The notes under the pieces were generated by a model, which was given only the letters and a program-made list of their open reading frames with translations, was not told the DNA's origin and searched no databases. This document shows, in pieces, positions 18,302-43,361 of a DNA stretch of 64,000 bases. The position numbers were made by a program, and so were the translations under genes. Origin of the DNA: Spirochaetia bacterium (GTDB lineage Bacteria > Spirochaetota > Spirochaetia > SZUA-6 > Bin103); assembly GCA_965203515.1 (NCBI GenBank), contig OZ241907.1, positions 989,730 to 1,053,729 on the forward strand, written 5' to 3'. How positions within the stretch are numbered: position 1 is the stretch's first letter; each line of letters opens with the position of its first letter.

Positions 18302-18309
18302 GGAATCCG

Positions 18310-19952: not shown

Positions 19953-20900
19953 TCAGCCCTTGACCGAGCCGAGCATGATGCCCTTCACGAAATAGCGCTG
20001 TATGAACGGGTAGACCAGCACGATCGGCCCGATCGACACGAACAGGAGCGCCGCCTTGACCGTCTCGGCGGTGATGTTGCGAATGTCCAGATCGGTCAGC
20101 AGCTCCAGTTCCGAGGTGACCTGATTTTCGATCAGCACCCGGCGCAGCAGCACCTGCAGGACGGTCAGATCGCGGCGCGGCGTGAACACCAGGGGAAAGA
20201 ACCAGTCGTTCCAGTGCGCGACCGCCGCCCACAACGCCACGGTCGCCACGACCGGGGTCGACAGCGGCACGATGATGCGGAACAGCACCTGCGTGAGGTT
20301 GGCGCCGTCGATGGTCGCGCTCTCGGTCATCTCGGCCGGGATCTCGCGGAAGAAGTTGCGCATGATGATGATGTAGTAGGCGCTGGCCGCCATGTGCAGG
20401 ATCCAGGCGGCGCGGGTGTTGAGCAGGCCGAGCTGCCGGTACCAGAGGAACGTCGGGATCAGACCGCCGGAGAAGAACATGGTGAACACGATGAAGAAGG
20501 TGATCGCCTTGATCCCCGGCAGCGTCCGGTCGGCAAGCCCGTAGGCGGCGGTGAAGCTGACCAGCAGGATCACGGCGGTGCCGGCGGCGGTCTTGAACGC
20601 CGAGTTCAGATAGGCGGTGCCCAGGATGTCGTTGCCGAACACCTGCCGGTAGTTGCGCAGCGTCGCGTCCGCCGGCCACAGCTTGATGCGGTCCTGCACC
20701 GAAGCGGCCGGCGTGTTGAAGGAATCGACCAGCATCGACCAGAACGGGTACAGGATCGACAGCGCGAACAGCGCCATCACCGCGTAGGCGAGCGCATCGA
20801 CCGTGCGGTCCTCCAGCAAGCGTCGGCGTGCCGCCGCCGGCGTACCGCCGTCGGCGTGCCGCCGCGTTCCGGCCCTTGCCGACACCGGCGCTCCGGTCAC
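19953..20900 (-). CDS. carbohydrate ABC transporter permease (MalG-like)
   Basis: 6-TM permease with EAA-like loop; GTG start at 20900 overlaps the upstream permease stop. Confidence 0.8.
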   Translation of the reverse strand: MTGAPVSARAGTRRHADGGTPAAARRRLLEDRTVDALAYAVMALFALSILYPFWSMLVDSFNTPAASVQDRIKLWPADATLRNYRQVFGNDILGTAYLNSAFKTAAGTAVILLVSFTAAYGLADRTLPGIKAITFFIVFTMFFSGGLIPTFLWYRQLGLLNTRAAWILHMAASAYYIIIMRNFFREIPAEMTESATIDGANLTQVLFRIIVPLSTPVVATVALWAAVAHWNDWFFPLVFTPRRDLTVLQVLLRRVLIENQVTSELELLTDLDIRNITAETVKAALLFVSIGPIVLVYPFIQRYFVKGIMLGSVKG

Positions 20901-21796
20901 GTCAGCGAGTACGCGCCCGCCTGCCCCAGGCGCTTGACGAACAGGTTTGCGGCGACCAGCGCGGCCAGACCGACCAGGTTCTGGAACAGGCCGGCGGCCG
21001 CGGCAAAGCTGTACCGGAACTCCTCCAGCCCCATGCGGTAGATGTAGGTGCCGAGTATGTCGCCGAAATCGTACACCAGCGGGTTGTAGAGGTTGAATAT
21101 CTGGTCGAAGCCGTGCTCCAGGATGTTGCCGAGCTGCAGCAGGAACAGGATGACGATCACGAAGGTGATGGAGGGCAGGGTGATGTGGCGCATCTTCCGG
21201 ATGCGCCCGGCGCCGTCGATCTCGGCCGACTCGTAGAGGCCCGGATCGATGCCGCTGATCGCCGCCAGGTAGATGATCGACCCCCAGCCGATCCCCTTCC
21301 AGATGTCCGACGCCAGGACGATGCCCAGGAACCAGTCCGAGCGCTGCAGGAACAGGATCGGGCCCCCGCCGCCGAGCGCCTCGACCAGCAGGTTGAGCGG
21401 GCCGTTGCTGGCGGTCAGCGGCCGGATCATGCTGGCCACCACCACCCACGACAGGAAGTGCGGCAGGTAGCTGATCGTCTGCACCACGCGCTTGAAGCGC
21501 AGGTGTCTGATTTCGTTCAACAGCAGCGCAAAGACGATCGGCATGAAGAAGGCGATGCCCATGCGCAGCACGCCGTTGATGAAGATCGTGTTGCGCAGCA
21601 CGCGGAAGAAATCGGGGGCCGCCAGCAGGCGGTCGAAGTACTTCCAGCCCGCCCAGGGGCTGCCGAACAGGCCCAGGGTGACGTTGAACTGCTTCCAGGC
21701 CAGCACGATGCCGGCCATCGGCACGTAGCGGAACACCACGAACAGCAGCAACGCCGGGATCAGGAGCAGGTAGCGCTCCCGGTACTTGCGGATCAC
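20897..21796 (-). CDS. carbohydrate ABC transporter permease (MalF/LplB-like)
   Basis: Polytopic permease (FINGVLRMG...EAA-like loop). GTG start at 21796 forms a GTGA overlap with the stop of the large helicase gene. Confidence 0.75.
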   Translation of the reverse strand: MIRKYRERYLLLIPALLLFVVFRYVPMAGIVLAWKQFNVTLGLFGSPWAGWKYFDRLLAAPDFFRVLRNTIFINGVLRMGIAFFMPIVFALLLNEIRHLRFKRVVQTISYLPHFLSWVVVASMIRPLTASNGPLNLLVEALGGGGPILFLQRSDWFLGIVLASDIWKGIGWGSIIYLAAISGIDPGLYESAEIDGAGRIRKMRHITLPSITFVIVILFLLQLGNILEHGFDQIFNLYNPLVYDFGDILGTYIYRMGLEEFRYSFAAAAGLFQNLVGLAALVAANLFVKRLGQAGAYSLT

Positions 21797-24700
21797 CGGT
21801 CCGGCGGCGGATCGGCGATGAGCGACAGTTGCTCGATCTTGCGGGTCACCCGCGCGACGTCGCGCTTCCGGTCGCGGCGCCGCCAGATCGCCAGCGCGTC
21901 GTGGTGCCGCCCCTCGCGTTCGTACACGCGCGCCAGCCCGATCTCGTCGCCGGCCGCCTGGCAGCAGCGGCGCGCGTCGTCGAAGTGCCCGGCGTCCCGA
22001 AAGGTCCTGGCCGCATCCCGCAGCTCGCCGGCTTCTTCCAGGAGGCGTCCGGCCCGGCCGTGGTCGTCGTGCAGCCGGCACACGCTCGCCGCCTCATGCA
22101 CGTCGCCGAGTTCGCGCAGCACCTCGGCCGCCGTCCGGTAGTGGGTGGGGCTGCGCGCGAACAGCAGGTAGTTCCCGGCGGTCGGCGTGACGTCGTGCAG
22201 CCGCGCATCCAGCTCGTCCAGTTCGCCTATCAAACCGCACAGCTGCAGTTCGGGATCGCCGGTCTCCTCGATCGCGCGCGCGAGCCGCTCGGCGAAGGAC
22301 GCCCGCCGCCACTGCTCATCATCCGGGTCGTTCGCGATATGCCGGGTCATGATCAGGACGATCTGGTTGAGCAGGCGCAGATCGATGAGCATCTCGCACA
22401 ACTCGTCGAACAGGGGGATCGTCATGCTGGCGTACCTGGGCTGGGAGGCCAGGATGCCGGCGACGCGCTCGCGCCGGTCGACTTCGTCGCCGCGGTACAG
22501 GCCGGCGTGCAGCAGGCGCACGACGATCTCCAGGTAGGCGTCGGACTGATTCCACAGACCCTCCAGCGAGCCGTCCCGGGCGCGCGCAAGCCGCTCCAAT
22601 TCGTCGAGCGGAAGCACCAGGTCGGGCCGTGCGTCGAGATAGGCGGAGGCGCGGTCGGCGTAACCATGCCGCAGAAAGAAGCGGATCGCCTCTTCGTGCC
22701 GTTCGAGCCGCGCATACTCCCCGCAGACATCGTCGACGTAGGGCGCCCCCCTTGCCGGCCCCCCGATGACCAACTCCAGCGCCAGGAAGTGGGCCAGGGC
22801 GCGTTCGTGCTCGCCGGCCGCCCGCAGGCGCCTGCCGGCACGGTTCAACTGCTCGATCCGCTCGGGGCGTCCTTCCCACGCGTGGAACACGTACGCGCAC
22901 AGGTAGTCGATCTCCTTCTTCTGGAGGTCGGGATCGCCGGTGCGGGCGATCTCCTGCGCCGCTTCGCGGTACCGGCCGACCCGCCCCAGACAGGCGGCGG
23001 CGGGCGCGTGCGCGCCGGCCTGCCGGTACAGTTCGATGGCGCGCGGAAGCTGCCCCTGCCGGCGTTCGAAGATGCGCGCCGCCGCCTCGGTCCGCCCCAG
23101 GGCGGCCAGGCGGACCGCCGCCTTGATCCCCGGCCGCTTCGGGCTGATCGCCGCCAGTCGCCGTTCCAGGTCGGCCCGGTTGCGCTCCGCGCGCCCGACG
23201 TAGGTGCGGAAGCACTCGATGGCTCGATCCAGGTTGTCCAGTTTCTCGAACAGCAGGCCCGCTTCGTAATACGCCTCGCTGCGCAGCAGGCAGCGCAGCA
23301 ACGCGTGATCGTCTTTCAGGCGCCGGTACAGGGGAACGGCCTTGTGGTGCTGGCCGGCGCGTTCGAACTCGTGGGCCGCCTCCTCCGGCAGGCCGGCGCG
23401 CCGGAACTGCACCGCCGCGGCGGCGTGATCGCCGGCGAGTTTCAGGTGGCGCGCCGCATCGGCTCGCCGGTCGCGGCTCAGGTAGTGCTCGGCGAGCAGG
23501 CGGTGCTCGCCGGCCCGCTCCCAGTTGCGCACCATGCGCTGCTCGTCGCCCAGTTGCCGCCATCGCGCGGCGGCCTTGACGTAGCGGCCGTCCGCCTCGA
23601 AGTGGCGCGCGTCGCAGGTCAGGGCGCGGCGTTCGTCGCCGGCGCGGCGCCACGCGCGCGCCGCTTCGCGGAAGGCTTCGCCGCGCTCCAGGTTCTCCGC
23701 CGCCCGCGCCGGGTAGCCGCGCCCGGCGAACAGGTCGGCCGCGGCGCGGTGATCGCCCTCCCGTTCCAGCCGGTGCGCGCGCGCCAGCTCCTCCCTGGCC
23801 GGCGCGGCGGCGTTGCGGTAGCACTCCTCGGCGGCGGCGAAGTGCTCGCGGTCGAAGAAGTAGTCCCCCTGGAGCTCCCACTCGGCGGGGCTCGACACGC
23901 GCTGCCAGAGGGTGGCGAGCGCCTGCGGGTCGCCGGAGCGGAACACGTGCTCGGCCAGCCCGCCGATCGTCCAGACCGGTCCGGCGTCCGGACCGTCCCA
24001 GATCACCAGGGTGTTGCGCGCGCGCGTCACGGCCACGTACAGCAGGTTGATCTCGTGCCGGACGTGCGGCGCGTCCGCGTCCGCGTGGCGGCGTTCCTGG
24101 GCGATGCGGCGCCAGCGCGCCGCCGAGCCGTCCGACTCCGTGAACCGCCAGAGCAGCACGGCGTCGAACTCCAGGCCCTTGGCGTCGTTGATGGTGAACA
24201 CCAGCTCGGTCCGCAGCTCCGCGCGCAGGCGGTCGCGTTCCGCCGGCGTGCGCACCAGCACGACCTGACCGGCGCCGGCGCGGCGCATGGCGCGCAGCAG
24301 CTCCGGTTCGGAGACGCCGTCGACCAGCAGCGGCGGCCGGCCGCGGAAGGTCCAGCGCTCGGCGATCTCGCCGCCGGCCAGACCGACCAGCGACCGTTTC
24401 AGCGCCAGCAGCTCGTTGGCCAGGGCGACGATGTTGCCGACGCTGCGGAAGTTGACGCTGAGGTTGATCACCTCCGGGACGCGCAGGCCGCGCTCGTAGT
24501 AGCGGGCGCGCACCTCCTCCCAGCGGAATCCGCTGGGGTTGATGATCTGCTTGGGGTCGCCGGCCAGCACCGTGCGCAGCGGGTCGGCGGCCAGCCGGAA
24601 CAGCAGCGCCAACTGCACGTCGGTGAAGTCCTGCACCTCGTCGCACACGACCAGGTCGTAGCGGAATCGGTCATCGTCCTGCTCCAGCCGTTGCAGGGCG

Positions 24701-26232
24701 GCGCGCGTCAGGTCGATCTCGTCGAAGCGGGAGCTCCGCTCCAGGCGGTCCTGGTAGTACTCGGCGATCCGGTGGATGTCGCGGCGGTCGAACGGGAAGT
24801 TGGGCGCCCGCTTGCGGCCCAGGCTTTCGTATTCGCGCAACGTCAGCAGCGGCCGGCCGAGGCGCGCCGCCTGCTTGTCGAGCAGGCGCAACGCCGCCTC
24901 CAGCAGGGCCGTCTGGTCGGCGAAGCGCGGCGCGTCCCCGTCGCGCACGCCGGCGGCGAACTCCTGCAGCGTCGCGATCGAGGTGCGGCGTTCGCGCACC
25001 GCGTCGAGCTTGGCGCCGAGCTCCAGGTTGCCCAACCGCACCAGGTACTCGGCCAGCTCGGCGCGCTCCCGCATGGTCGCCTGCGAGCGGACGAAGCGCT
25101 CGGCCAGCTCCGCGAAGCGCCGGCGGCTCACGGGCGGCTTGGCGCCCTTGATGATCGAGCGTATCTCCTCCCACACCAGCTCGGCGTCGTAGCGGTTGGC
25201 GCCCGGATGGTTGTGGAAGATGTCGCGGAACTCCCGCAGCCCGGCCGGCGGCTGCGCGGACGCCGGCCCGCCGGCGGAGAGGATCTCGCGCAGCAGCTCG
25301 GCGAAGGTGGCGAAGCGCGCCGCCTCCGGGGCCGCTTCCAGGTCGGTCGCCGTCACCAGGCCGCGGTAGATGCGCTCCGAGAAGCGCTTCAGGTGCGGGC
25401 TGCCGGTGACGAACAGGGCGCGCTCGCGGGCCGCCGCGGAGGCGGCGGCGGGGATGCCGGCGTCCGGGCCGTCACCGTCCGCGGCGCCGGCGAGCTGGCG
25501 GGCGCGGTGGCGCAGCAGGTAGTAGACGGCGATGGTCGTCTTGCCGCTGCCGGCGGTTCCCGACAGCAGCACCGGCGGCTCGCTGTGCAGCAGGCGCGCC
25601 TGCTCGCCGGTCAGGAAGAGGTAGAGTTGCACGCCGTCGGGGTCTGCGGCGGCCAGCAGCCGGCGCCATTCTTCGTCGTCGACGACCAGCCAGCGCTGCG
25701 GCCCGGCGTCCGGCGCGTCGCCGTCCGGGGCGCCGCCGGCGCGGGCGGTGGCCGGTGCGGTGGAGAACGGGCGCTCGATCGCCGCGCCCAGGTGCTCGTC
25801 GGGCAGGTCGTCCAGGATCAGGTCCGGGACCTCTTCGGCCTGGTCGGCGTGGAAGTCCAGGAACGGCGCGTTGGCGGCGACGATGCGGCGCTCGGCCGCG
25901 GTGACGTCGTCGTGCTTGACCACGCCCCAGACGTAGATGCGGGTCGCGCCGGCGCCGCCGGCAGGGCCGCCGGGCGCGGCGGCGGCGGGCGGGCGCCCCA
26001 GCGTGAACAGGATGCGGTCGCCGCGCGTCAGCCGCGCCTCGAAGACGGAGCGCCCGCCCCTGAGCTTCTTGACGCGGACGCCGATGTCCCACATGCCGTG
26101 CCGCAGGAATTCCAGCTTCTCGCGCAGGCGCTCCTTCTGGCGGCTGCCGAGCGAGGCGAGGTGCGATCGGACCGCGTCGTGGAGGAGCAGGAGGTATTGT
26201 CGTTGCTGCATGAGTGGACGGCGCCGCGCCAT
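21793..26232 (-). CDS. large multidomain protein: RelE/ParE-like N-terminal domain, UvrD-like SF1 helicase core and C-terminal alpha-solenoid (TPR-like, about 19-aa) repeats
   Basis: N-terminus (KKLRGGRSVFEARLTRGDRILFTLG...TRIYVWGVVKHDDV) aligns by eye to RelE/ParE toxins. Helicase motifs: Walker A GTAGSGKTT; motif II VCDEVQDFT; motif III GDPKQII; motif IV NFRS; motif V/VI KGLEFDAV and VAVTRAR. C-terminal 740 aa are repetitive xxAGxxxxAAxxFxRAG units. The 1489-aa ORF on the opposite strand is a GC shadow. Confidence 0.8.
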   Translation of the reverse strand: MARRRPLMQQRQYLLLLHDAVRSHLASLGSRQKERLREKLEFLRHGMWDIGVRVKKLRGGRSVFEARLTRGDRILFTLGRPPAAAAPGGPAGGAGATRIYVWGVVKHDDVTAAERRIVAANAPFLDFHADQAEEVPDLILDDLPDEHLGAAIERPFSTAPATARAGGAPDGDAPDAGPQRWLVVDDEEWRRLLAAADPDGVQLYLFLTGEQARLLHSEPPVLLSGTAGSGKTTIAVYYLLRHRARQLAGAADGDGPDAGIPAAASAAARERALFVTGSPHLKRFSERIYRGLVTATDLEAAPEAARFATFAELLREILSAGGPASAQPPAGLREFRDIFHNHPGANRYDAELVWEEIRSIIKGAKPPVSRRRFAELAERFVRSQATMRERAELAEYLVRLGNLELGAKLDAVRERRTSIATLQEFAAGVRDGDAPRFADQTALLEAALRLLDKQAARLGRPLLTLREYESLGRKRAPNFPFDRRDIHRIAEYYQDRLERSSRFDEIDLTRAALQRLEQDDDRFRYDLVVCDEVQDFTDVQLALLFRLAADPLRTVLAGDPKQIINPSGFRWEEVRARYYERGLRVPEVINLSVNFRSVGNIVALANELLALKRSLVGLAGGEIAERWTFRGRPPLLVDGVSEPELLRAMRRAGAGQVVLVRTPAERDRLRAELRTELVFTINDAKGLEFDAVLLWRFTESDGSAARWRRIAQERRHADADAPHVRHEINLLYVAVTRARNTLVIWDGPDAGPVWTIGGLAEHVFRSGDPQALATLWQRVSSPAEWELQGDYFFDREHFAAAEECYRNAAAPAREELARAHRLEREGDHRAAADLFAGRGYPARAAENLERGEAFREAARAWRRAGDERRALTCDARHFEADGRYVKAAARWRQLGDEQRMVRNWERAGEHRLLAEHYLSRDRRADAARHLKLAGDHAAAAVQFRRAGLPEEAAHEFERAGQHHKAVPLYRRLKDDHALLRCLLRSEAYYEAGLLFEKLDNLDRAIECFRTYVGRAERNRADLERRLAAISPKRPGIKAAVRLAALGRTEAAARIFERRQGQLPRAIELYRQAGAHAPAAACLGRVGRYREAAQEIARTGDPDLQKKEIDYLCAYVFHAWEGRPERIEQLNRAGRRLRAAGEHERALAHFLALELVIGGPARGAPYVDDVCGEYARLERHEEAIRFFLRHGYADRASAYLDARPDLVLPLDELERLARARDGSLEGLWNQSDAYLEIVVRLLHAGLYRGDEVDRRERVAGILASQPRYASMTIPLFDELCEMLIDLRLLNQIVLIMTRHIANDPDDEQWRRASFAERLARAIEETGDPELQLCGLIGELDELDARLHDVTPTAGNYLLFARSPTHYRTAAEVLRELGDVHEAASVCRLHDDHGRAGRLLEEAGELRDAARTFRDAGHFDDARRCCQAAGDEIGLARVYEREGRHHDALAIWRRRDRKRDVARVTRKIEQLSLIADPPPDR

Positions 26233-26310
26233 CGTACCCCATCCGGCGGGGTGGGTGCGTCACCCCCAGTGGACCGGACCGAGCGCCTTGACGCTTGACG
26301 TCCGCCGTCA

Positions 26311-26619
26311 ATGCTCGCCAAGCTGGGGGCCGTCGTGATTCTTGGATACCGGGACAAGCGAACCGAGCGGTTCGCCTCCGGAGAACGGGTCCCGGCGTTC
26401 CAGGAATTCGAGAGGCAGGCGGCGAAGCGACTGGCGATCCTGGACGCGGCACCGTCATTGGACACGTTGAGAGCGTTGCCAAGCAATCGTCTGGAAGCCC
26501 TCAAAGGGGATAGACAAGGGCAGTACGCGATTCGGGTAAACCTGCAATGGCGTATCTGCTTCTCATGGCCCACGAGCAGTCAGGGTCCGATCGATGTCGA
26601 AATCATCGACTATCATTAG
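26311..26619 (+). CDS. higB: HigB toxin (RelE/ParE superfamily plasmid-maintenance killer protein)
   Basis: RLEALKGDRQGQYAIRVNLQWRICFSW...VEIIDYH matches the HigB consensus; precedes higA. A GTG at about 26335 is an alternative start. Confidence 0.8.
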   Translation: MLAKLGAVVILGYRDKRTERFASGERVPAFQEFERQAAKRLAILDAAPSLDTLRALPSNRLEALKGDRQGQYAIRVNLQWRICFSWPTSSQGPIDVEIIDYH

Positions 26620-26678
26620 GAGAGCGAGGTGTAGCAATGTGATACGTAACTGAGCAGCAGCTTATGAACTTTGTCTAA

Positions 26679-26993
26679 ATGGAGATGAGAATGTTTAAGA
26701 GAGCCGTTCATCCTGGAGAGGTTCTGCGAGACGAGCTCGCGGAAATGGGAGTGAGCCGGACCACCTTTGCGCGCGAAATCGCCGTGCCGCCGAATCGTGT
26801 CGGACAGATCATCGCCGGAAAGCGTTCCGTGACGGGGGACACTGCCTTGCGATTCGGGCATTGGTTCGGAGTCGATCCTCAATTCTGGCTGAATCTGCAG
26901 GCTCAGTTCGACTTGGTGACCGCCGATCAGCGAGTCGGAGCGGTCATCCGGGAGCTGCCCACCGCAGACCGAGTCGAGACCGGGTATGAATGA
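26679..26993 (+). CDS. higA: HigA antitoxin (XRE-family HTH)
   Basis: VHPGEVLRDEL...GDTALRFGHWFGVDPQFWLNLQAQFDL is a near-textbook HigA. Confidence 0.85.
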   Translation: MEMRMFKRAVHPGEVLRDELAEMGVSRTTFAREIAVPPNRVGQIIAGKRSVTGDTALRFGHWFGVDPQFWLNLQAQFDLVTADQRVGAVIRELPTADRVETGYE

Positions 26994-26999
26994 ACCCGC

Positions 27000-27974
27000 T
27001 CAACGTTGATCGATCGTCTCGGCTCGCGTGAAGTTCATGTACCTGCCGGACGAAATCCGGCGCGCCCGCTGGCGACCGGTGACGCCGAGCGCGGCCCGCG
27101 TCGCCTCGTCGTCCAGACCGCCATGGCCGATCAAGGCGCGGGCGGCGGCAAGGCTGATCGGCGCTCGCCAGATCGGCCAAGTGAAGGAGAAGGCGCCGTG
27201 ATCCCGGGAGCCGCCGAGTAGCTCCAATCGAATGTCCGGTCCCCTCCGACGCGGCGTCACGGTCAAGACGGACAGACCGACCGCGGCGAGTCGGTTGGCG
27301 CCGTGCTGGGTGGTCTCCTTGGTCTTCGCGTCGGTCGGATCGGTCGCGCGAAGTGCGTGGCGCACGTCCTCATGCGGGTCCCAGCGAAACGACTGCGTCG
27401 CATCCAACCGTTCCCACGGGAGGAACAGCGCTTCGCGAAGGCACTCGCCTTCCGTGATCGCGACCTTGGAGCGGCCCGTGCCTCGGGCAGGAGGCGTCCG
27501 TTCCTGCAGCACGGAGCCCAACCGTTCCAGGAAGTGTTGGCGACCTTGGCCGAACAACAGACACAGCGGCGTCGGTTCCGCTTCCTGTTGCTTGTCCCGA
27601 TCGCGAATCGCGGCGTCACTCACCAGTGCCGCCCACAGGTCGGCGGCATAGCGATCATCGCGGGACGCGCGGAGCTTTCCGGCGGCGTCCTCCGGCGACA
27701 ACTTCAAGTCCTTGACCGGTTCGAAGCGATGCCGGCCAGCCAGTTCCGCCAGCCCGGCCGCTACGGCCGTCACGATCGAATCTTCCGACACCGGCTGAGC
27801 CACGTGCAGCACCGGCCGCACCGGCGGGTCGTCGACAGTCCACGAGACTCGCGGCAGCCACGACGGCTCGGCTTCTTCGAGAACCCGCAGCAGCCCCAGC
27901 AGCGCCATGAAGGCGAGCAGATTGTCCGGCTCGAGGCCGCTCAGACGGTGGCGTATCTCTGCGTTCATTGCCAT
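27000..27974 (-). CDS. CRISPR-associated protein, putative Cas8u-like large subunit (Csb3/Cas8u1-type; tentative)
   Basis: Last gene of the effector operon; its ATG shares one base with the cas3 stop (TGATG). About 324 aa with no family recognisable by eye. Assignment rests on position and the gene order csb1-csb2-cas3-csb3 recalled for type I-U/I-G variants. Confidence 0.4.
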   Translation of the reverse strand: MAMNAEIRHRLSGLEPDNLLAFMALLGLLRVLEEAEPSWLPRVSWTVDDPPVRPVLHVAQPVSEDSIVTAVAAGLAELAGRHRFEPVKDLKLSPEDAAGKLRASRDDRYAADLWAALVSDAAIRDRDKQQEAEPTPLCLLFGQGRQHFLERLGSVLQERTPPARGTGRSKVAITEGECLREALFLPWERLDATQSFRWDPHEDVRHALRATDPTDAKTKETTQHGANRLAAVGLSVLTVTPRRRGPDIRLELLGGSRDHGAFSFTWPIWRAPISLAAARALIGHGGLDDEATRAALGVTGRQRARRISSGRYMNFTRAETIDQR

Positions 27975-30922
27975 CAACTCCCGTCGGACGCTCGATGGTC
28001 GGCAAGGCGCAGGATCGTCTCCAGCCGCGCAAGTCCCCAGGTCCCATAGTTCCGTTTGAGCCGCTCGAACATGGTGGCCCAATCAAGGCCGTCGTAGGCG
28101 AAGGCGAGCGACTGCGGCCCCGGACCGGGTCCCACGCGCCATCGGTCGACATCCAGGCAGCGGGACAGACCGTGCCCGGCGGTGCTTGCCTGCGGGTCGG
28201 CGAAGCCGAAGAACGGCCGCCCCAGTCCGTGGTGGGTCCCGATGAGCCACAACACGAGAGCGGGATCATGCGCCTCCGCAAAGCGACGGTGCGCCATCGC
28301 CATCCGTACCGACAGCGCCTCATGCCGCCACCCGTCCGGCAAGCCGGCTCGCTGCCACGCGTTTGGCGAGGATGGTCTTCCGCTCTTGGCCCGCGGCGGA
28401 CCGTCGGGACGGTTCCACCAGTCGCCGCCGGACAGAAACGTCTGGAAGCGTGAGTCGGCCTTTCCGGCGTCGTGCAGGAACGCGGCGAGGCTCAGGTCGG
28501 CGGCTACCTTCGCCGGCATGCCAAGAGTTCGCGTGAAGCGCTCTACGAACGCGACGACATCGCTGCAATGGTCATTCACCGTGACCGGATGGCCCGGTTG
28601 GCGCGACGTGTGCGAGAGCGTTTCGTCTTCGGTGACCGGCGCTGCCAGATCACTTTCGCTGGATTCTCCCATGAGGCCGTGAGGCGCCACGAGGATGGCG
28701 CCGCTCGCGGGATTGCCTTGTTCGTAAGGGAAGTGCAACCTGATCCGTCCTCTCGCGTCTCTGAGCGACATGAGCGGTGCGCGGACGCAGCGCGGCGGCA
28801 TGTCCTCGTCGGTCGTACCGGCGTCAGCTTCCGCGGTCTCGGCCGGGAGTGCGTCCAGAAGGAGTTCCACCAGCTCGCGCCCGTCGGCCCCGTCGGCTCC
28901 GAGCGCTTCCTCGACGCGTTCCCACTCCGCATCGCTGCGGACCGTGTCGCGGGCTACGCGGACCGAGTAGCGCCGGTGGCGATAGGGCCACATCGCTTCG
29001 TGGGCCATGTCCCTGACGGGCCGTTGTCGATCGGTCGAGCGCCCCGGTTCCTTGGCGATCGGGTTCCAGCCGAATTCGTCGCACCCGCCGTACTCCGCGG
29101 GAACGATCAGCAGGTCGCCGGGTCGCAGGTCCTCCGCGCTGACGATCCCGGTCCGAGGGTCGTCGGACCCAGCCCATCGAAATACCTTCGTTCCCGTCCG
29201 CTCCGTTCGTCCGGCCCGGTCTGACTCGTCCCGCGCCGGCACGTCGGCGATAGCCGCGCGCGCAGAACGGCCGTTCAGCCATGCGGTCACAGACCAGATC
29301 GGAAGCTCAACCATCTCGGCGGTGCGTGGCGGAACCAGCTCCATGATCGTCTTGAGATCGGTGCCGGTTTCGTCGCTCAGGTCGGATGAGTCAATGTCGC
29401 TTCGCCATACGAGGGATACGTCGGCGGACGCGCGATCGGCTCCATGGAGGAACAGACCGACCTCCGGGTCGGCGGCCGGCGGCGGCGAGGTCTGCGACCA
29501 GAGATCGAGATATGCAGGCATCAGAACCGGCGCCTGCGCGCGGGGAGCGGCAAGTTCGGCGGCATCGAGAGCAGCCTCGTTCAGGCGGCGTTGGAACGCC
29601 GTCACGCCGAAGTCCAGGTCACCATCGCCGGCGATCAGGGTAAGGGCGTTCCAGGTCTTGCGAATGCGGTCGCCGTAGATGGGATCGTCGGCCTTCTTGC
29701 TCAATTCGTCGGCCATCACGAGGATGGCGCCGGCTGCCGGAATCGCTCGGCCGGCGCGGTTCAATCGTCCGAAGCGCTGGCGGAGCGCATCGAGAGGGGC
29801 GGCCTGCGTTACCAACCCGTCGAGGTCGAGATCGACCCCCACCTCCAGGCACTGGGTGGCGACGACGAACAAGGCGGCAGCGTCATCGCGGGCGCCGGTA
29901 TGATATGGAGCAAGCTGGCACGCGATCCGGTCTCGGTCGACGTCGCGCGAACGGCCGATCATCAGCAGGGCCTCAGACGAAGATGCGCTCTTGCTCCGCA
30001 GCTTGCGGAAGATCTCGCGCGCCAGATCTACCCGGTTCACGACGACGCCGACCGCCGGCGACGGCACGCCGCCGGTTCGCAACCGATCCGCCATCTTGAT
30101 GGCGGCATCGGTAAAGGCATCCGCAGCGGGTGTCCGAACCGGCTTCTCCAGGCTGGTCGGTTTCGATGCTTCGAGCCGCTCCTTCAGGATGGGATGGACG
30201 CGATCGTCGGGCGTAAGGGAAAAGGTCCGTTGTTCCGAATCCCCCGGCGTCGCCGAGAGGAGAGCGGTCTTGATACGCGTGCCCCCGATCTGTTGCACGT
30301 CGGCGAGGGTACGCCGGAACGGTTCGGACAGATGCGCTTCGTCGAGGAGGATCAAGCTGTCCGAACCCAGGAGGCCGGCGTGTACGGGTCTCATACGGTT
30401 GGAGACCCCGTAACCGCGGAACAGAAGTCGTGATCCGACCTGATCGACGGTCGAGCAGACGATCGTCGGCTGCGTCGGGGTTCGTGCCCAGTCATGTTCC
30501 AGTGGCGCTCCGCCGCGCAGCTTCCGAGCAACGAGCGGCGGCGCGCCGTCGCCGGCCAGGAGTTGCAGCCGGTCCGCGACTTCCCGGACCACCGCGCTGC
30601 CGTTCTTCTCGTCGGACGGAGGAGCGGCGAGGGCGCTGGCTATTCTCTCGGCCCGTGCGAACGCGTCATCCACCACCAGCCGCCGGTCGACGACCAGCGC
30701 CATCCTCAACGCTGCCTTCCGCGGCGCGTCCGCGCGCAGCGCCAGATGAAACACGGCAATATCCAAGGCCGCCGTCTTGCCGGCGCCGGTAGGCAAGTCC
30801 AATACCGGCGGCCAAGCATCGTCTTCGGCAAGCAGATCGATCAGTGCCTGCTGCCAGGGGAACGGATCGTGGTCGTGCACTGCGCGGAAGTAGTGGGCGA
30901 AATCGCTCGGACCAAGCTGCAT
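27974..30922 (-). CDS. cas3: Cas3 helicase with C-terminal HD nuclease domain
   Basis: DEAH-box helicase motifs (LDLPTGAGKT, LLDEAH) and C-terminal HD motifs (FLHDAGK, WRHEALS, GTHHG). HD at the C-terminus is typical of type I-G. Start ATG MQLGPSDF at 30922. Confidence 0.85.
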   Translation of the reverse strand: MQLGPSDFAHYFRAVHDHDPFPWQQALIDLLAEDDAWPPVLDLPTGAGKTAALDIAVFHLALRADAPRKAALRMALVVDRRLVVDDAFARAERIASALAAPPSDEKNGSAVVREVADRLQLLAGDGAPPLVARKLRGGAPLEHDWARTPTQPTIVCSTVDQVGSRLLFRGYGVSNRMRPVHAGLLGSDSLILLDEAHLSEPFRRTLADVQQIGGTRIKTALLSATPGDSEQRTFSLTPDDRVHPILKERLEASKPTSLEKPVRTPAADAFTDAAIKMADRLRTGGVPSPAVGVVVNRVDLAREIFRKLRSKSASSSEALLMIGRSRDVDRDRIACQLAPYHTGARDDAAALFVVATQCLEVGVDLDLDGLVTQAAPLDALRQRFGRLNRAGRAIPAAGAILVMADELSKKADDPIYGDRIRKTWNALTLIAGDGDLDFGVTAFQRRLNEAALDAAELAAPRAQAPVLMPAYLDLWSQTSPPPAADPEVGLFLHGADRASADVSLVWRSDIDSSDLSDETGTDLKTIMELVPPRTAEMVELPIWSVTAWLNGRSARAAIADVPARDESDRAGRTERTGTKVFRWAGSDDPRTGIVSAEDLRPGDLLIVPAEYGGCDEFGWNPIAKEPGRSTDRQRPVRDMAHEAMWPYRHRRYSVRVARDTVRSDAEWERVEEALGADGADGRELVELLLDALPAETAEADAGTTDEDMPPRCVRAPLMSLRDARGRIRLHFPYEQGNPASGAILVAPHGLMGESSESDLAAPVTEDETLSHTSRQPGHPVTVNDHCSDVVAFVERFTRTLGMPAKVAADLSLAAFLHDAGKADSRFQTFLSGGDWWNRPDGPPRAKSGRPSSPNAWQRAGLPDGWRHEALSVRMAMAHRRFAEAHDPALVLWLIGTHHGLGRPFFGFADPQASTAGHGLSRCLDVDRWRVGPGPGPQSLAFAYDGLDWATMFERLKRNYGTWGLARLETILRLADHRASDGS

Positions 30923-30927
30923 GCGCG

Positions 30928-32454
30928 TCAACCCCCCGGACCGCGCAGACCGCGGCACAACCCCAACCCGGTAAAGCGGCCGGCACCGAGCAATACCGGG
31001 CCTTCGGTCACGTCGCCGAAGTCGATGACGGCGTGCACCAGCGCCCGGCTGGCAAGCTGCTCCGGGACGTTCCAGCGCATCCACGGCGGCTCCCCGGACG
31101 ACGGCCGCGACGGCGGCGCGCCTTCTATCGCAGAGTGCTTGCCTACCTGAATCCGGTTGAGATCCGGGCGGGGCAGCCCGGTGTTCTCGCACGCACGCGC
31201 CACCAGATCGCGGACCTCGGTATCGTCGCGGCGTTTGAGATGACGATCCAGCACGATCGGGGTTACGCTGGCCCACACTCGCGCCGGCCGCACGTAGGGA
31301 TCAGGGGAGAGGGAGCGTTTGGTTTCCGTCCCGACGGGCGCCAGCCGCAACGGTGCGCGGAGCGGCGCTCCTTTCAGTTCCAGCACCCGCCGCTCCTCAC
31401 CCGGGTCGTACCGCGCGATCGTCTCGAAGGCCGCCCGGAATCCGGGAATATCGGGCAGTCTGGTTTGCGGCGGGGGCACCAGGGCAAAGCCGAACACCCG
31501 TCCATCCGCATGCGGGAAGCCGGTGAACGCCAGCGGCACGATCGCAAGGTGAGGGTAGCGGGTGGGTGCTCGATCCGGCGTGTGCCCGGAGACGACCTCC
31601 GGGATACGATGCGCCAAGTCGATACGCCGGTACCCGCTCATCAGCGCCCGTCGCAGGGCTCGGCAGACCAACGCCGCGGCGCGGATGTCGGGAACGGTTC
31701 CGGAAATCGCCTCAAGTACGAGCCAACCGGGCGGCTGAGGGTCCGCAGCCGGTTCCGGGGCGGGCGGAACAACCGCCGCTCCGGGGGAGATCACCGGCCG
31801 TATTGGGTTGGTGCGGTACGCGCGCTCCAGTTCTTCCAGGCGGCCGGGATAGATATGCCGTCGGGCCGGGGCCGCGGCGTGTTCCTGCGCCGTGCCGTTT
31901 CCATAGGCGAATCGGCAGCGAACCAGGCTGGCCGAATGACCGACGTAGCCGACGTCGCGCGCGATGTTGTCCAACGCGCGCACCATGGCAGGTTCCGGCG
32001 ACTGATGCCACGCCAGCGTCATGAGCGGATCGTCGGGGCGAGCCACGGGAAACCGGCGCTCTTTCCGGGTCCGGGTCTCCGGGAGCACCGATTGTGCCGT
32101 CACCCAATCCTTGAAGCCGCTCGCGGGCGGCCGAATACCGCGTGCCAAATAGTCGCGGAACCATTTCAACTGCCCGAGGTCCCGCGCCGGTGTCGCCGAA
32201 TCGTTCGGCGGCACGAATACCTCCGGTGTGGTGCGTGCCGTGTGGCCACTGGCATGCACGTCCGGCGGCGACTGCCGTTCGAGCCATTCGAGCGCCTGTC
32301 GCTCCTCGGCGCGTTCGCCGCGTGCAGCCCACGCGGAAACGAGCGCCGAGAACACCCGATCCGTCTGTGGCGGCCAATCCGGCGCCGTATTCGCCGGTCC
32401 GCGGGCGGCTCGACAGACGCCGGTCAGGAACTCGATCTCCAGGGCGAGGCTCAT
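30928..32454 (-). CDS. csb2: Cas5-Cas6 fusion (Csb2/GSU0054 family)
   Basis: Starts MSLALEIEFLTGVCRAA (Csb2-like); about 509 aa; ATGA overlap with the cas7 stop. Confidence 0.7.
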   Translation of the reverse strand: MSLALEIEFLTGVCRAARGPANTAPDWPPQTDRVFSALVSAWAARGERAEERQALEWLERQSPPDVHASGHTARTTPEVFVPPNDSATPARDLGQLKWFRDYLARGIRPPASGFKDWVTAQSVLPETRTRKERRFPVARPDDPLMTLAWHQSPEPAMVRALDNIARDVGYVGHSASLVRCRFAYGNGTAQEHAAAPARRHIYPGRLEELERAYRTNPIRPVISPGAAVVPPAPEPAADPQPPGWLVLEAISGTVPDIRAAALVCRALRRALMSGYRRIDLAHRIPEVVSGHTPDRAPTRYPHLAIVPLAFTGFPHADGRVFGFALVPPPQTRLPDIPGFRAAFETIARYDPGEERRVLELKGAPLRAPLRLAPVGTETKRSLSPDPYVRPARVWASVTPIVLDRHLKRRDDTEVRDLVARACENTGLPRPDLNRIQVGKHSAIEGAPPSRPSSGEPPWMRWNVPEQLASRALVHAVIDFGDVTEGPVLLGAGRFTGLGLCRGLRGPGG

Positions 32455-33674
32455 TCTTCTTCGTCGCGACCCGCGCCTTCGAGCGCCAGCTCGCGGCTGC
32501 GCCGAACGATTTCGACCAGCTTGGGCTGTGGAGTCAGCGTGAGCGACCGGAAGCCAAAGCCGGCCTTCTCGGCATTCCGGTACGATTCGAGATACAGCTC
32601 CCGCGCCTCCGCCCGGTCCAACTCGATCGTCTCCGTGGTACCGTCGGCGTGCACTACCTCCAACGGGGCGGCTCCATCGCACACAAGGTCGCAACGGGAA
32701 CGCAACGCGTAACCGTACGCATCCTGTTCGCAGAGCGCTACCAGACCGAGCGCGGCGAGCAGCGCCCGCCCGGCGGTATCGCGAGTGCCACCGCCGAACC
32801 GCAACCGTCTCAGCCCGGCCAGCGTGATCACTGCCCGGTGCTCGGCATAGGCACAGGTCACGCCAAGAGGCTGAATGGAAGGTGCGATATTGCTGTGATT
32901 GATCTCGGAAGGGCGGACCTTCTTGGCGCCTTTGCCGGCACCGCCTTGTTCCGTACTCCAGCCTGCTGGTCCCTTGAACACTTCGACTTTGCGGAGAACG
33001 CCTAGCGGATCGATGCGGCTGCCGGTACGCCGGCCAGCGTTCCGAGGCTCCGTTGTCCGGGCTTGTGGGTCCATTTCGACTTCTACCGGAGTGTCCACCC
33101 CGATGATCTCCGAGACGAGCGCACGCGGGAACTTGGCGCCAAGTCCGCCTCCTTCACCCTGGCTGTGCCATGCGCCGAAGATCAGCGCCGTCGGGGACAG
33201 CTCGAGCAATGCGGTCGCGTCAGCCGGCTTCGCCGCGGCGAGGCGGCGGCCCTGCTCGCTCTGCATGAACGGTACACCGTCCAGGAAGCTGTCACGCAGA
33301 ATCGCGTCGTACACGCGGTGCGGCGCCTCCAGTGAGGTGATCCGCTCCAGCGGATGCAGGCCGGCATCGCTGAAGTCCACGGTGACGTACGGCAGAGGCA
33401 GTGCGTCTCCGTCAGTGGCGGCACTCAGCAGCGCCTCTTCGAGTCGATTTGCCTGGCTCTGGACACTGTCGATCAGAACGCACCACACGTCCTTGCCATC
33501 GTTCCGCCGACGTTCGAACACGTGGCGCGGTGGGTCTCTGTGCTGTTCACCGGGATAGGTTGGCGGAAAGATCTTGTCGCCGACGCCGCCAGCGGGCTGC
33601 AGACGCCGGATCCGGCGGATGGCAGCATGGCTGGAGATGGCGTCATTCAGTATCGAGATGGAACTCATAGTCAC
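32451..33674 (-). CDS. csb1: Cas7 (Csb1 family) backbone protein of type I-G Cascade
   Basis: N-terminal RLQPAGGVGDKIFPPTYPG is Csb1-like; 407 aa. GTG start at 33674; alternative ATG at 33668. Confidence 0.7.
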   Translation of the reverse strand: MTMSSISILNDAISSHAAIRRIRRLQPAGGVGDKIFPPTYPGEQHRDPPRHVFERRRNDGKDVWCVLIDSVQSQANRLEEALLSAATDGDALPLPYVTVDFSDAGLHPLERITSLEAPHRVYDAILRDSFLDGVPFMQSEQGRRLAAAKPADATALLELSPTALIFGAWHSQGEGGGLGAKFPRALVSEIIGVDTPVEVEMDPQARTTEPRNAGRRTGSRIDPLGVLRKVEVFKGPAGWSTEQGGAGKGAKKVRPSEINHSNIAPSIQPLGVTCAYAEHRAVITLAGLRRLRFGGGTRDTAGRALLAALGLVALCEQDAYGYALRSRCDLVCDGAAPLEVVHADGTTETIELDRAEARELYLESYRNAEKAGFGFRSLTLTPQPKLVEIVRRSRELALEGAGRDEEE

Positions 33675-40786: not shown

Positions 40787-41752
40787 ATGCGTGACAAGGA
40801 ACTGTACGGCAGGATTCTGGGCGTCGAGGCACCGTGGCGAGTGGCCGACGTCGAACTGAACCTTCAGCAGGGCGAGATCGTGGTCCACGTCGAGCACGGC
40901 GGGCCGCTCACCTGCCCGCGCTGCGGCCAAGCCGCGCGCCGCTACGACAGCAGGCAACGGCGGTGGCGCCATCTGGACACCTGCCAGTACCGCACGGTTC
41001 TGGCCGCCGACGTACCGCGGTCTCAGTGCCGGCAGCACGGGGTCAAGCAGATCGAGGTGCCGTGGAGCGAAGGCCGCTCGCGGCTGACCGCGCTGTGCGA
41101 GGCGGTCGTGATCGACTGGCTGCAGCACGCCACGATCGCGGCGGTGGCGCAGCAGATGCGGCTCAGCTGGGACGAGGTCGACGGAGTGATGCAGCGCGCG
41201 GTGCACCGCGGCTTACAGCGGCGCGAGGTGCAGCTGCCGCCGCGGATCGGCGTGGACGAGACGTCGTTTCAGAAGCGCCATGAGTACGTGACGGTGATCA
41301 ACGATCTGGACGGGCACGTCGTGCACGTGGCCGATGGCCGCCGCAAGGAGGTGTTGGAGGAGTTCTACCAGCAGTTTGACCATGAGCAGTTGGCTGCTGT
41401 CGAGACGGTCGCCATGGACATGTGGGAGCCGTACATCATCGCGACCGCCGCCTACGTGCCGGACGCGGAGCTCAAGATCGCGTTCGACAAGTTTCACGTC
41501 GCCCGGCACCTCGGCAACGCCGTTGACCAGGTACGGCGAGCCGAGAGCCGCCGGCTGGCCGGCAGCGGTGATGATCGGCTGAAGGGCAGCCGCTATGCGT
41601 GGCTGACCAACCCCGAGCACATGGATGCCGAGCGTTGGCGGCAGTTCGCTGACTTGCGGGACAGCGCGCTGCAGACCGCGCGCGCCTGGGGCTACAAGGA
41701 ACATGCGATGACGCTGTGGAAGTACCGCTCTCGCGGGTGGGCGTGGAGTTGA
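40787..41752 (+). pseudogene. ISL3-family transposase, N-terminal portion (interrupted by IS3 insertion)
   Basis: 322 aa with a zinc-finger-like N-terminus (CPRCGQ) and the ISL3 DDE region; ends ...LWKYRSRGWA where the nested IS begins. Confidence 0.8.
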
Positions 41753-43063
41753 CCCGCTTTCGTGGACACATCAAGAGTGAGGACGAGAGGAGGGAATACG
41801 ATGGCGAGAACGCATCAAGCGTATCCACAGGAGTACCGCCAGCAGATGGTCGAGCTGATCCGTGCCGGCCGCACGCCGGAGGACCTGGCGCAGGAGTTTG
41901 AGCCGTCTGCCGGCTCGATCCGCAACTGGGTCGCGCAGGACGAGCGCGACGCCGGGCAGCGCAGCGACGGGCTCATCGGTGAGGAACGTCAGGAGTTGCG
42001 CCGCCTGCGCCGCGAGAACAAGCAGCTACGGATCGAGCGTGACATCTTAAAAAAGCAGCGGCTTGGTTCGCACGGGAGAGCGACTCGATCCCGGAGCGGG
42101 ATTCCGGTTCGTGAAGGCGAATCAGGCCACGTGGCCGGTGCGCACCCTCTGCCAGGTGCTGGGTCTCTCCCCCAGCGGCTACTACGCATGGGTGCGCCGC
42201 AGGCCGTCGGCGCGAGCGCGGCGGGACGCGCAGTTGATGGGGCGCATCAAGGAGGTCTGGACCGCCAACCGCGAGGTGTACGGCCGGCTGCGGATACACG
42301 CGGAGTTGCAGGCAGCCGGCGAACGGGTCAGCGCGAAGCGGGTCGGGCGACTGATGCGGCGCGCCGGGATCGCGGGGGTGAGCCGCCGGCGTACGACGCG
42401 CACGACTACGCGCGAGCAGCGAGCGGAGCGGGTAGCCCCAGACTTGGTAGAGCGGAACTTCGCGGCGACCGAGGCGGATCGGTTGTGGGTGGCCGATATC
42501 ACCTATGTGACGACGTGGGCGGGATTTCTGTACGTGGCGGTGGTGCTTGATGCGTGGAGTCGGCGCGTGGTCGGCTGGTCGATGGCCGCGCACCTGCGGA
42601 CCGAACTGGTCCTGGATGCGCTGAACATGGCGATCTGGCGGCGTCGGCCGCAGGGCGTGGTGCACCACAGCGACCAGGGCGCGCAGTACACGTCGATCGC
42701 CTTCGGGCAGCGGTGCCGGCAGGCCGGAGTGAGACCGTCGACCGGCTCGGTGGGCGATGCGTATGACAACGCGCTGTGCGAGAGCTTCTTTGCGACGCTG
42801 GAGTGCGAGTTACTGGATCGTCACCGGTTCGGCGGTCGGGCCGAAGCGCGCATGGCGGTATTCGAGTTCATCGAGGGGTTCTACAACCGGCGCCGGCGCC
42901 ACTCGGCACTGGGCTACCGGTCGCCGGTTGCCTTCGAGGCCGACGAAGCCGAGGCAGCAGCATGACGATCGGCTTGACGGCCAACGCCATCGCGAGGACT
43001 GTTCCTCTGCGACGGGGTTGTGCACATCAGAGGTTACCCGTCCACCAAACCGGGACAACTCCA
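41744..43063 (+). mobile_element. IS3-family insertion sequence nested inside the ISL3 transposase gene
   Basis: About 1320 bp. Terminal inverted repeats TGGAGTTGACCCGCTTTCGTGGAC at 41744 and GTCCACCAAACCGGGACAACTCCA ending at 43063 (19/23 matches), starting TG and ending CA. Likely 3-bp GCG duplication. Removing it restores the ISL3 reading frame (RGWA-RKAWQAWY). Confidence 0.7.
41801..42965 (+). CDS. IS3-family transposase OrfA/OrfB with programmed -1 frameshift
   Basis: OrfA (MARTHQAYPQEYRQQMVELIRAG, HTH) to about 42060; slippery A-AAA-AAG at about 42045. OrfB in the -1 frame (42063-42965) carries an rve DDE integrase core (WVADITYV ... HSDQGAQYTS ... ESFFATLECE). Confidence 0.85.
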
Positions 43064-43361
43064 GGCGCGCAAGGCGTGGCAGGCGTGGTACCGGTCGGCG
43101 ATCCGGTGTCGTCTGGAGCCGGTCAAGCGGGTAGCGCGGATGGTCAAGCGTCATCTGGAAGGGATCGTGACGGCGGTGGTGCAGGGGGTGAGCAACGCGC
43201 GGGCGGAGTCGATCAACGCGGGGGTGCAGAGGTTGAAGTACGCAGCGCGCGGCTTTCGCAACCGGCAGAGGTTCCGCAACGCCATCTACTTTCACCTCGG
43301 CGGCCTTGACCTCTACCCTGCCGGTGTCGGCCGTGACCACCTCGTCCACACGAAAGCCTGA
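43020..43361 (+). pseudogene. ISL3-family transposase, C-terminal portion
   Basis: QARKAWQAWYRSAIRCRLEPVKRVARMVKRHLEGI...AAR GFRNRQRFRNAIYFHLGGLDL matches ISL3 transposase C-termini. Confidence 0.8.

Follow-up and report, generated by a model that had tools for sequence, protein, structure and literature searches.

A candidate single-gene conflict protein with a predicted RelE-like head, a UvrD-like helicase and an alpha-solenoid tail in a Spirochaetia bacterium

Toxins of the RelE, HigB and YoeB type are stand-alone proteins of about 90 amino acids (aa) that act on mRNA in the ribosomal A site, and in Cami1, the CARF-RelE fusion that serves type III CRISPR as an ancillary ribosome-dependent RNase (PDB 8phb), a nuclease of the RelE fold is regulated in cis and has no antitoxin. 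Nhi, Hna and type II Mokosh unite a superfamily-1 (SF1) helicase with a nuclease effector in a single gene, and the Avs and NLR-like STAND proteins carry an N-terminal nuclease-type effector, a central NTPase and C-terminal repeats. Described here is a 1479-aa protein encoded in a 64,000-nucleotide stretch of contig OZ241907.1 from a Spirochaetia bacterium (the window, whose numbering is used for all positions), in which a predicted RelE-like head, a UvrD-like SF1 ATPase/helicase and a long repeat tail follow one another in one chain and would take the roles of effector, motor and sensor. The original prediction for this gene had regarded it as a candidate single-gene antiphage or abortive-infection effector of undescribed architecture, and the analysis below is consistent with a conflict role that is graded together with its alternatives.

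Domain structure and evolution of the protein

The open reading frame (ORF) runs on the minus strand from an ATG start through 1479 codons to a TGA stop (Table 1), and its GC contents of 0.93 and 0.49 at the third and second codon positions (GC3 and GC2) show the codon-position pattern of a real gene in a genome of about 70-72% GC. This pattern and the homologs found across the full length uphold the ORF as it was first called. The equivalent of M8 is the start in every aligned homolog, and the true start may therefore be at M8, position 26211. ORF length by itself is uninformative at 72% GC, as exemplified by a plus-strand ORF of 1489 aa (21829..26298) opposite the whole helicase gene, which was rejected as a high-GC shadow with a low-complexity nonsense translation. 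A database search with the protein gave 324 homologs, and of the 120 matches listed the majority span 98% of the query or more, are 1400-1500 aa long and have identities down to 37-44%. Head, helicase and tail all align across the full-length homologs, which are named in the databases only "UvrD-helicase domain-containing protein", "TPR repeat protein" or "hypothetical protein".

Residues 8-129 were modelled by AlphaFold2 (pLDDT 78.6, pTM 0.72) as a strand, two helices, four strands and a helix in that order, which is the compact b-a-a-b-b-b(-b)-a fold of the RelE/ParE (BECR) superfamily, and RelE, YoeB, HigB2, YafQ and ParE were among the matches of a fold search with this model. The predicted head has the fold of RelE/HigB/YoeB-type endoribonucleases, and homology rests on the predicted fold. 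The RelE/ParE likeness first seen by eye in the N-terminus thus holds at the level of fold but not in sequence profiles, since no Pfam, PDB-profile or significant hhalign match to RelE/ParE was obtained for the head, no model in Pfam, NCBIfam or PADLOC covers residues 1-180, and a profile of 31 homologous heads found no toxin among PDB sequences at E ≤ 10. The N-terminal domain of McrB gave a weak PDB match (E 0.08) that got no backing from the fold search and was set aside.

A non-significant hhalign alignment with RelE (E 0.18) and a hand alignment, made without superposed coordinates, gave the same register. In this tentative register KKLRG of the head stands opposite NKLRG of RelE, EARLTRGDRILFTL opposite IKLRSSGYRLVYQV and IYVWGVVKH opposite VFVISVGKR, and E65, R67, R73 and H107 would correspond to K52, K54, R61 and R81 of RelE, with Tyr87 as the only catalytic position that has no equivalent. 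The N-terminal strings on which the by-eye comparison was built are present. The catalytic Arg/Tyr, described there as lacking, is missing as regards the Tyr87 equivalent, but in the tentative register an invariant His would occupy the R81 position and an invariant Arg would stand at each of the K54 and R61 positions; a His at the R81 position is used by YoeB (H83), YafQ and HigB. All 42 distant relatives compared have K55, E65, A66, R67, R73, F76 and H107, and D108 is nearly invariant (the invariant K55, E65, R67, R73 and H107 are K48, E58, R60, R66 and H100 in domain numbering), and a conserved NAPFLxF motif closes the head at residues 121-127. Charged residues conserved to this degree speak for a pocket in the head that is catalytic or binds RNA; an RNase activity of the head is putative.

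The motor was originally described as a complete UvrD/Rep-type SF1 core, and this proved accurate: motifs I, Ia, II, III, IV, V and VI were all located (Table 1), their residues are invariant in the alignment, and both UvrD-helicase (44.2 bits, cut-off 23) and UvrD_C (36.1 bits, cut-off 25.6) pass the Pfam gathering thresholds. In the PDB profile search the closest solved sequence was PcrA (2e-10), followed by UvrD. The NCBIfam equivalogs UvrD, PcrA, Rep, RecB, HelD and AddA scored 17-44 bits against cut-offs of 419-1168, and because these scores lie so far under the cut-offs the motor is, by this measure, not an ortholog of any named helicase. Motifs Ia and II are separated by a family-specific insert of about 240 aa, which includes the invariant ELVWEEIRSIIKGAKPP. 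The best PADLOC matches concern the helicase core only, namely DRT RTasHel (8.6e-12) and GajB models (from 2e-11), with AbiO and mad8 models also matching. The Pfam scan of the 1479-aa protein gave no CARF or other signal-sensing domain, and of a STAND core only a sub-threshold nSTAND3 match (E 0.049) over 30 P-loop residues. To judge from its sequence, the motor may work on DNA or on RNA.

For the tail, residues 761-1479 (719 aa), AlphaFold2 gave an all-helical model of 49 helices with a pLDDT of 91.8, most helices having 10 residues and being spaced by 3-residue turns. Autocorrelation peaks at 13, 26, 39 and 52 residues correspond to 13 residues per helix and 26 per hairpin, and the modelled tail is an antiparallel helix-hairpin solenoid of the kind found in TPR proteins. 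The canonical 34-residue TPR was not matched, all Pfam TPR matches in the tail being under gathering scores. The C-terminal alpha-solenoid array that had been claimed is thereby retained with a repeat unit of 13 residues, not of about 19.

At the greatest distance identity is 54-60% in the head, 47-58% in the helicase, 32-40% in the proximal and 23-30% in the distal solenoid. The ratio of nonsynonymous to synonymous substitution rates (dN/dS) was estimated by region in pairwise Nei-Gojobori (NG86) comparisons with five close relatives, which are not independent and in which synonymous sites are constrained at GC3 0.93, and was 0.11-0.41 for the head, 0.21-0.44 for the helicase, 0.26-0.58 for the proximal and 0.50-1.42 for the distal solenoid. 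In sliding windows over residues ~1000-1477 the values were 0.9-2.06 against locus L091 and 0.6-1.3 against L002, and the flanking genes of the same genome pairs, cas genes included, served as a control with 0.15-0.48. The distal half of the tail diversifies rapidly. In pairwise estimates of this kind a dN/dS of about 1-2 may reflect relaxed constraint as well as positive selection.

Distribution, relatives and genomic surroundings

The family is rare and patchy, with 90 loci in 185,579 genomes (one per species) spread over several phyla. The loci are almost all metagenome-assembled and belong to Spirochaetota, including the high-GC Spirochaetia clade of the window, to Desulfobacterota, to Marinimicrobia and to one Bacteroidota genome, and most members are on contigs of chromosomal size. 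A profile of the head alone, run against 1.84 billion cluster representatives, found 208 proteins (50% identity clusters), and a UvrD-like helicase followed the head in 8/8 multidomain matches scanned. The tails of the scanned relatives were short (820-880 aa in total), of TPR or Sel1 type (1050-1200 aa in total), or longer in proteins with extra N-terminal parts. Four relatives, P0232 (1899 aa), P0227, P0254 and P0264, have 50-280 additional residues ahead of the RelE-like head; in P0232 Pfam matches the extension weakly, below threshold, to a nucleic-acid-binding OB-fold (tRNA_anti-codon), and this would suggest that nucleic acids are targeted.

Relatives were also found on plasmids. A 1095-aa protein with the head (hhalign 97.6%, E 3e-12) is encoded on a 29-kb plasmid of Crinalium, where ParA, DUF262/DUF3696 and integrases are its neighbours, and helicases annotated as "ankyrin repeat domain-containing" have the same head on plasmids of E. 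coli, Shigella, Polymorphobacter and Thermus, with the motif VKKL..YWRAKLSDKDRLLF..LVLE.I.NHAY. The ankyrin-group head matched that of the window's family with 95.4% in hhalign (E 1.7e-8), from an alignment of four sequences of which the Euhalothece member has no ankyrin annotation and looks nearer to the window's family. Neighbours of the plasmid relatives are ParA/ParB, replication initiators, integrases, DUF262/DUF3696, Tn3 and insertion sequence (IS) elements, and the carriers include plasmids of the pINV type in Shigella and of the F type in E. coli. Among 5426 complete E. coli genomes, 116 (~2%) have the ankyrin-tailed relative, of the WP_000686652.1 type, mostly on the chromosome, where its island also contains Ag43, Gp2-family, Rpn and IS66 genes, and the enterobacterial ankyrin-tailed relatives, seemingly uncharacterised, are found on 101 Shigella plasmid records. 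The enterobacterial proteins are distantly related, have about 950-970 aa and are annotated as "ankyrin repeat domain-containing" or "hypothetical" (for example 6191-9103 in L090 and 12049-14898 in L097). Judged from these alignments, head and helicase form a conserved module with an exchangeable tail that is TPR-like, ankyrin, short or absent.

Some Spirochaetia genomes have two diverged whole-gene paralogs of 1400-1500 aa. In L100 (3677-12446) they are in tandem, separated by 8 bp, flanked by ABC permease gene fragments and near a second gene of the Uma2 family, and on OZ244929.1 (L008, L017) and CBDBDQ010000005.1 (L010, L028) the paralog matches start about 22-27 kb apart on the same contig. 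A phage origin was rejected, as no relative was present in viral contigs (IMG/VR) or deposited phage genomes (INPHARED). The combination of head, helicase and solenoid is absent from Pfam architectures, recent surveys of multidomain RelE/BECR proteins mention no helicase fusion, and full-text literature searches gave no description. With PADLOC likewise holding no such system, the architecture was rightly called undescribed as a defence system, and the superfamily as delimited by its sequences is undescribed in the libraries and literature searched.

No recurring neighbour emerged from all-against-all ORF clustering of 81 loci, and in a Pfam scan of 248 neighbours at 42 non-redundant loci no family occurred in more than 3 loci; the Pfam and PADLOC neighbour scans report the 25 commonest families, from which no per-locus defence fraction is derivable. 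A conserved partner gene is ruled out by the clustering and these scans. Neither an OLD/GajA neighbour, among the families listed for the 42 loci, nor a cognate antitoxin gene recurs there, and a labile antitoxin-like partner or domain was not found; the helix-turn-helix (HTH) gene next door in the window is the partner of HigB and is lacking in the closest relative. Scattered PADLOC matches among the neighbours are mad3, HEC-01A, AriA, PtuA, NsnB, a type I methyltransferase, PDC-S01, BrxC and SoFic. Single loci have type I restriction-modification (RM) genes (L082), DUF4258/MqsA and AbiEii (L083), a MazE pair, HigBA and Dam (L086), PIN-Phd (L099), or PIN-Phd and RHH near the tandem pair (L100). 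In all, toxin-antitoxin (TA), RM, abortive infection (Abi) or CRISPR genes lie within 1-2 genes in about 5-6 of 9 independent lineages inspected, a small sample without formal background. The neighbourhood survey proposed with the original prediction thus found defence-type genes nearby in these lineages, but also no conserved partner and some loci in metabolic surroundings; the TA, RM, Abi and CRISPR neighbourhood is suggestive of a conflict role.

The history of the window locus was traced by blastn of L081, L091, L092, L093, L001, L002 and L006 against the window. L081, which encodes an identical protein, matches at 98.8% over 11773-26259 and then diverges fully, having beyond the breakpoint a different, divergent type I-G locus and type III genes. 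L091 (92% DNA identity) has the same I-G operon as the window, co-oriented with the helicase gene and with its last cas gene ending 172 bp before it, and is without higBA, 132 bp standing there against 26255-26980 (~0.7 kb) in the window. Because the 92%-identical L091 lacks it, the higBA pair (about 0.7 kb) was inserted recently and later than the CRISPR-Cas island; it lies on the opposite strand, with the last cas gene on one side and the helicase gene on the other. At the 5′ flank a Cas02710 gene is present in L092. In L093 and L001 (72% protein identity) no more than an MFS transporter and an aminotransferase separates the helicase gene from a GHL10 region that matches 48269-53586 of the window. 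Since L093 and L001 run from the gene to the GHL10 region without the intervening genes, 26.26-48.27 kb of the window is an inserted 22-kb island holding higBA, cas genes, arrays, IS elements and Uma2. The region on the 5′ side of the helicase gene is a variation hot spot, in which close relatives have at least five different contents: co-oriented I-G, the same with higBA, divergent I-G with type III, Cas02710, and MFS with aminotransferase only.

On the other side, the block at 12.6-21.8 kb with ABC, solute-binding protein, PhyH and BNR genes is absent in L092 and L002, rearranged in L093 and partly inverted in L093 and L001. All synteny breakpoints fall at the borders of the helicase gene, at 26249-26262 and 21789-21804. 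The helicase gene is resident and its flanks are mobile, because the gene stays while both flanks change in close relatives, and it stands at the edge of a CRISPR-Cas/TA hot spot. The GTGA overlap of its stop with the start of the ABC permease is seen in the sequence; the conclusion once drawn from it, that the gene had entered a transport operon at its head, is ruled out by synteny, as the gene is constant and it is the ABC block that is missing or inverted in relatives. The block (12600-21800) contains two ABC permeases, PhyH, BNR, DUF3500, a 462-aa HNH protein and a 529-aa protein without a Pfam match that is possibly the solute-binding protein.

The higBA pair and the type I-G system reported next to the gene were both found (Table 1), the latter also holding a Cas4-Cas1 fusion, Cas2 and two array segments with one common 36-nt repeat. 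The defence-island context claimed for the gene is correct for the window, where CRISPR-Cas and higBA adjoin it, but the adjacency belongs to the island of one lineage and is not a trait of the family. A 360-aa ORF after cas3 (27000-28082, minus strand) has no Pfam match, and a PADLOC match to Cas8g (4e-79) in the upstream-neighbour set, whose matching member is unspecified, is probably this ORF; such a gene order, cas7-csb2-cas3-cas8g-like, would be uncommon among type I-G systems. An ISL3-family transposase gene, broken up in its turn by an IS3-family (rve) element, divides the CRISPR array into two segments (36760-40594 and 43762-46096), and a gene for a putative restriction endonuclease of the Uma2 family lies at the far edge of the island (46966-47598, plus strand).

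Table 1. Positions of the protein's parts and of neighbouring features in the window
Feature	Window position	Residues	Strand	Remarks
Whole ORF	21793..26232		-	GC3 0.93; homologs of 1400-1500 aa, down to 37-44% identity at 98-99% coverage
Predicted RelE/HigB/YoeB-like (BECR-fold) head	25846..26211	8-129	-	Invariant K55, E65, R67, R73, H107; D108 nearly
Linker, acidic, Pro/Ala-rich	25693..25845	130-180	-	Weakly conserved, variable length in alignment; dN/dS 0.5-1.0
UvrD/PcrA-like SF1 helicase core	23953..25692	181-760	-	Pfam, PDB profile, motifs
Walker A (motif I), GTAGSGKTT		225-233		K231
Motif Ia		273-288
Motif II		528-536		D531, E532
Motif III		556-573
Motif IV		591-601
Motif V		679-694
Motif VI		730-745
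Predicted alpha-solenoid tail, TPR-like	21796..23952	761-1479	-	About 49 short helices, 13-residue period
Fast-evolving distal solenoid	21802..23235	~1000-1477	-	Sliding-window NG86 dN/dS
GTGA overlap, helicase TGA stop / ABC permease GTG start	21793..21796		-	Sequence; arrangement lineage-specific
ABC permease (BPD_transp_1) downstream of helicase gene	20897..21796
5′ intergenic region	26233..26310		.	blastn; synteny breakpoint 26249-26262 common to all close relatives
HigB-like	26311..26619		Opposite to helicase gene	Pfam 3e-12
HTH gene	26679..26993		Opposite to helicase gene
Cas3 with C-terminal HD	27974..31276		-
GSU0054	30928..32694		-
GSU0053	32451..33674		-
ISL3, N-terminal part	40787..41752
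rve (IS3-family)	42063..42965
ISL3, C-terminal part	43020..43361

Proposed function and alternatives

The protein is read here as a self-contained conflict or defence protein encoded by a single gene, with a probability of about 0.45. It would act alone, with neither antitoxin nor partner gene, as an anti-phage or conflict protein of the abortive-infection type. The tail would bind a ligand that is foreign or associated with infection, the helicase would serve as the switch by binding ATP, hydrolysing it or translocating, and the RelE-like head, whose toxicity would have to be restrained in cis because no antitoxin exists, would be held harmless until that event. Once released or positioned, the head would cut RNA and so bring translation to a halt; its most likely target would be mRNA in the ribosomal A site, which RelE, HigB and YoeB also cleave. 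A conflict role is favoured because of the fast distal tail, the exchange of TPR and ankyrin tails, the occurrence on plasmids and islands, the tandem paralogs and the TA, RM, Abi and CRISPR neighbours. More tentative is the wider proposal that the relatives constitute a new class of single-chain immune or conflict sensors, ranging from soil Spirochaetes to plasmids and islands of cyanobacteria, Thermus and E. coli/Shigella, in which an SF1 helicase in the switch role of STAND gates an antitoxin-free, probably ribosome-dependent RelE-type RNase and TPR and ankyrin tails are interchangeable.

Several results weigh against a conflict role of this kind. No RelE, ParE, HigB or YoeB family of Pfam matches the head at E ≤ 1, its hhalign comparisons with E. 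coli RelE (E 0.18) and YoeB (E 0.68) are not significant, and neither the window protein nor any of five relatives has a model of its own in PADLOC-DB v2. Head and helicase are highly conserved across phyla (47-60% identity), and the vertical retention of the gene in the Spirochaetia clade despite the turnover of its flanks is also a housekeeping-like pattern. SF1A motors of the UvrD/PcrA type are classically DNA enzymes, an awkward fit with a ribosome-dependent RNase. Some loci lie in purely metabolic surroundings, and the count of defence neighbours and the dN/dS values carry the limits given with them above.

Part of this evidence would suit a housekeeping or stress factor, in which an A-site-binding RelE-like head brings the UvrD-like helicase to ribosomes or transcription-translation complexes for mRNA or ribosome quality control or the clearance of stalled complexes, the head being a regulated nuclease or a mere adaptor and the solenoid a scaffold, much as in the helicase-plus-TPR surveillance machines Ski2-Ski3 and Upf1-SMG. 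Such a factor would be expected to look as this gene does in keeping its place between changing flanks, in the purifying selection on head and motor, which is like that on neighbouring metabolic genes, and in its high conservation over the full length across phyla; several loci lie among metabolic or translation-factor genes, for example BipA and sugar ABC genes, and phages and viral contigs (IMG/VR, INPHARED) have no copy. The family is however far too rare and patchy for a core function, it has relatives on plasmids and islands and diverged or tandem paralogs within genomes, the type of tail is swapped among relatives, the dN/dS of the distal tail is near or above 1, and no conserved operon with translation or repair genes was seen at the 42 loci, all of which makes a housekeeping role less probable than the conflict role, whose main rival it is. 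The plasmid relatives could instead point to a selfish or inter-element module, that is a cis-fused, antitoxin-free toxin serving addiction or the exclusion of competing elements, of which the chromosomal copies in Spirochaetia would be domesticated remnants. The ParA/ParB, replication initiator, integrase, Tn3 and IS neighbours on small plasmids, the carriage on Shigella pINV-type and E. coli F-type plasmids and the rank of TA modules as the commonest neighbours fit this, but an addiction module would be unusual as an ATP-driven protein of 1479 aa, the antitoxin-like labile partner or domain is missing, the window copy is chromosomal and stably inherited, and most members of the family are on contigs of chromosomal size; the explanation is considered improbable.

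A role as CRISPR-Cas accessory, in which the fused helicase and RelE-like head would work together with the type I-G or type III system beside them, as Cami1 does with type III, is suggested by the cas genes that directly adjoin the gene in the window, L081, L091, L092, L002 and L006, and by the co-oriented arrangement 172 bp after the last cas gene in L091. These loci all belong to one shallow clade of at least 80% protein identity, within which the content and orientation of the cas genes vary (I-G on the same strand, divergent I-G with type III, Cas02710), and already at 72% identity L093 and L001 have no cas genes at this place. Among the families listed, the other ~40 lineages have no cas neighbours, and a CARF or other signal-sensing domain is wanting in the protein. 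An accessory role is by this heterogeneity and confinement largely refuted and is given hardly any probability.

If the conflict role is correct, a toxin of the RelE family would be controlled in a new way, not by an antitoxin but by the ATP-driven motor and the sensor tail to which it is fused, and the effector-NTPase-repeat design of bacterial innate immunity would gain a new type of NTPase. Neither the Pfam RelE/ParE models nor PADLOC nor the recent surveys of multidomain BECR toxins captured the superfamily of 208 clusters. The hypothesis is directly testable in a model organism, because about 2% of complete E. coli genomes carry the ankyrin-tailed relative, which also occurs on plasmids of Shigella and E. 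coli.

Comparison with known systems

Like RelE, HigB and YoeB, the head of the window protein would, in the tentative register, have basic or His residues where RelE has K54, R61 and R81 and YoeB has R65 and H83, but it is without profile-level similarity, without a cognate antitoxin and without the Tyr87 equivalent, and is part of a 1479-aa ATPase. The regulation of a RelE-fold nuclease in cis and the lack of an antitoxin would be shared with Cami1, whose regulator is a CARF domain that binds cyclic oligoadenylate; that of the window protein would be an SF1 helicase with a solenoid, and it has no consistent CRISPR linkage. Compared with the SF1A helicases UvrD, PcrA and Rep, of which PcrA and UvrD are the closest solved, the motor has all the motifs but differs in its 44 bits against equivalog cut-offs of 700-1100, in its ~240-aa insert and in being joined to a RelE-like head and a solenoid tail. 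GajB of Gabija is resembled in partial matches of its models to the helicase (2e-11), and the family has no recurrent GajA partner of the OLD family nearby. Nhi, Hna and type II Mokosh use other helicase subfamilies and other nuclease folds (PLD, Cap4-like), and to our knowledge a RelE-fold head and a long solenoid tail are both lacking in all of them; the matches listed by PADLOC include Mokosh neither for the window protein nor for its relatives, and Nhi just for the E. coli relative, at 9e-6. With the Avs and NLR-like STAND proteins the window protein would share the order of effector, NTPase and repeats, and its repeats evolve fastest, but its NTPase is an SF1 helicase and its effector is RelE-like.

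The protein thus appears to resemble RelE toxins, Cami1, UvrD/PcrA/GajB and the Avs/NLR proteins without belonging to any of them, because it differs in profile and antitoxin from the RelE toxins, in CARF from Cami1, in orthology and partner from GajB and in the class of NTPase from Avs. By this comparison it is best filed next to its nearest kinds, the multidomain BECR toxins and the effector-NTPase-repeat sensors.

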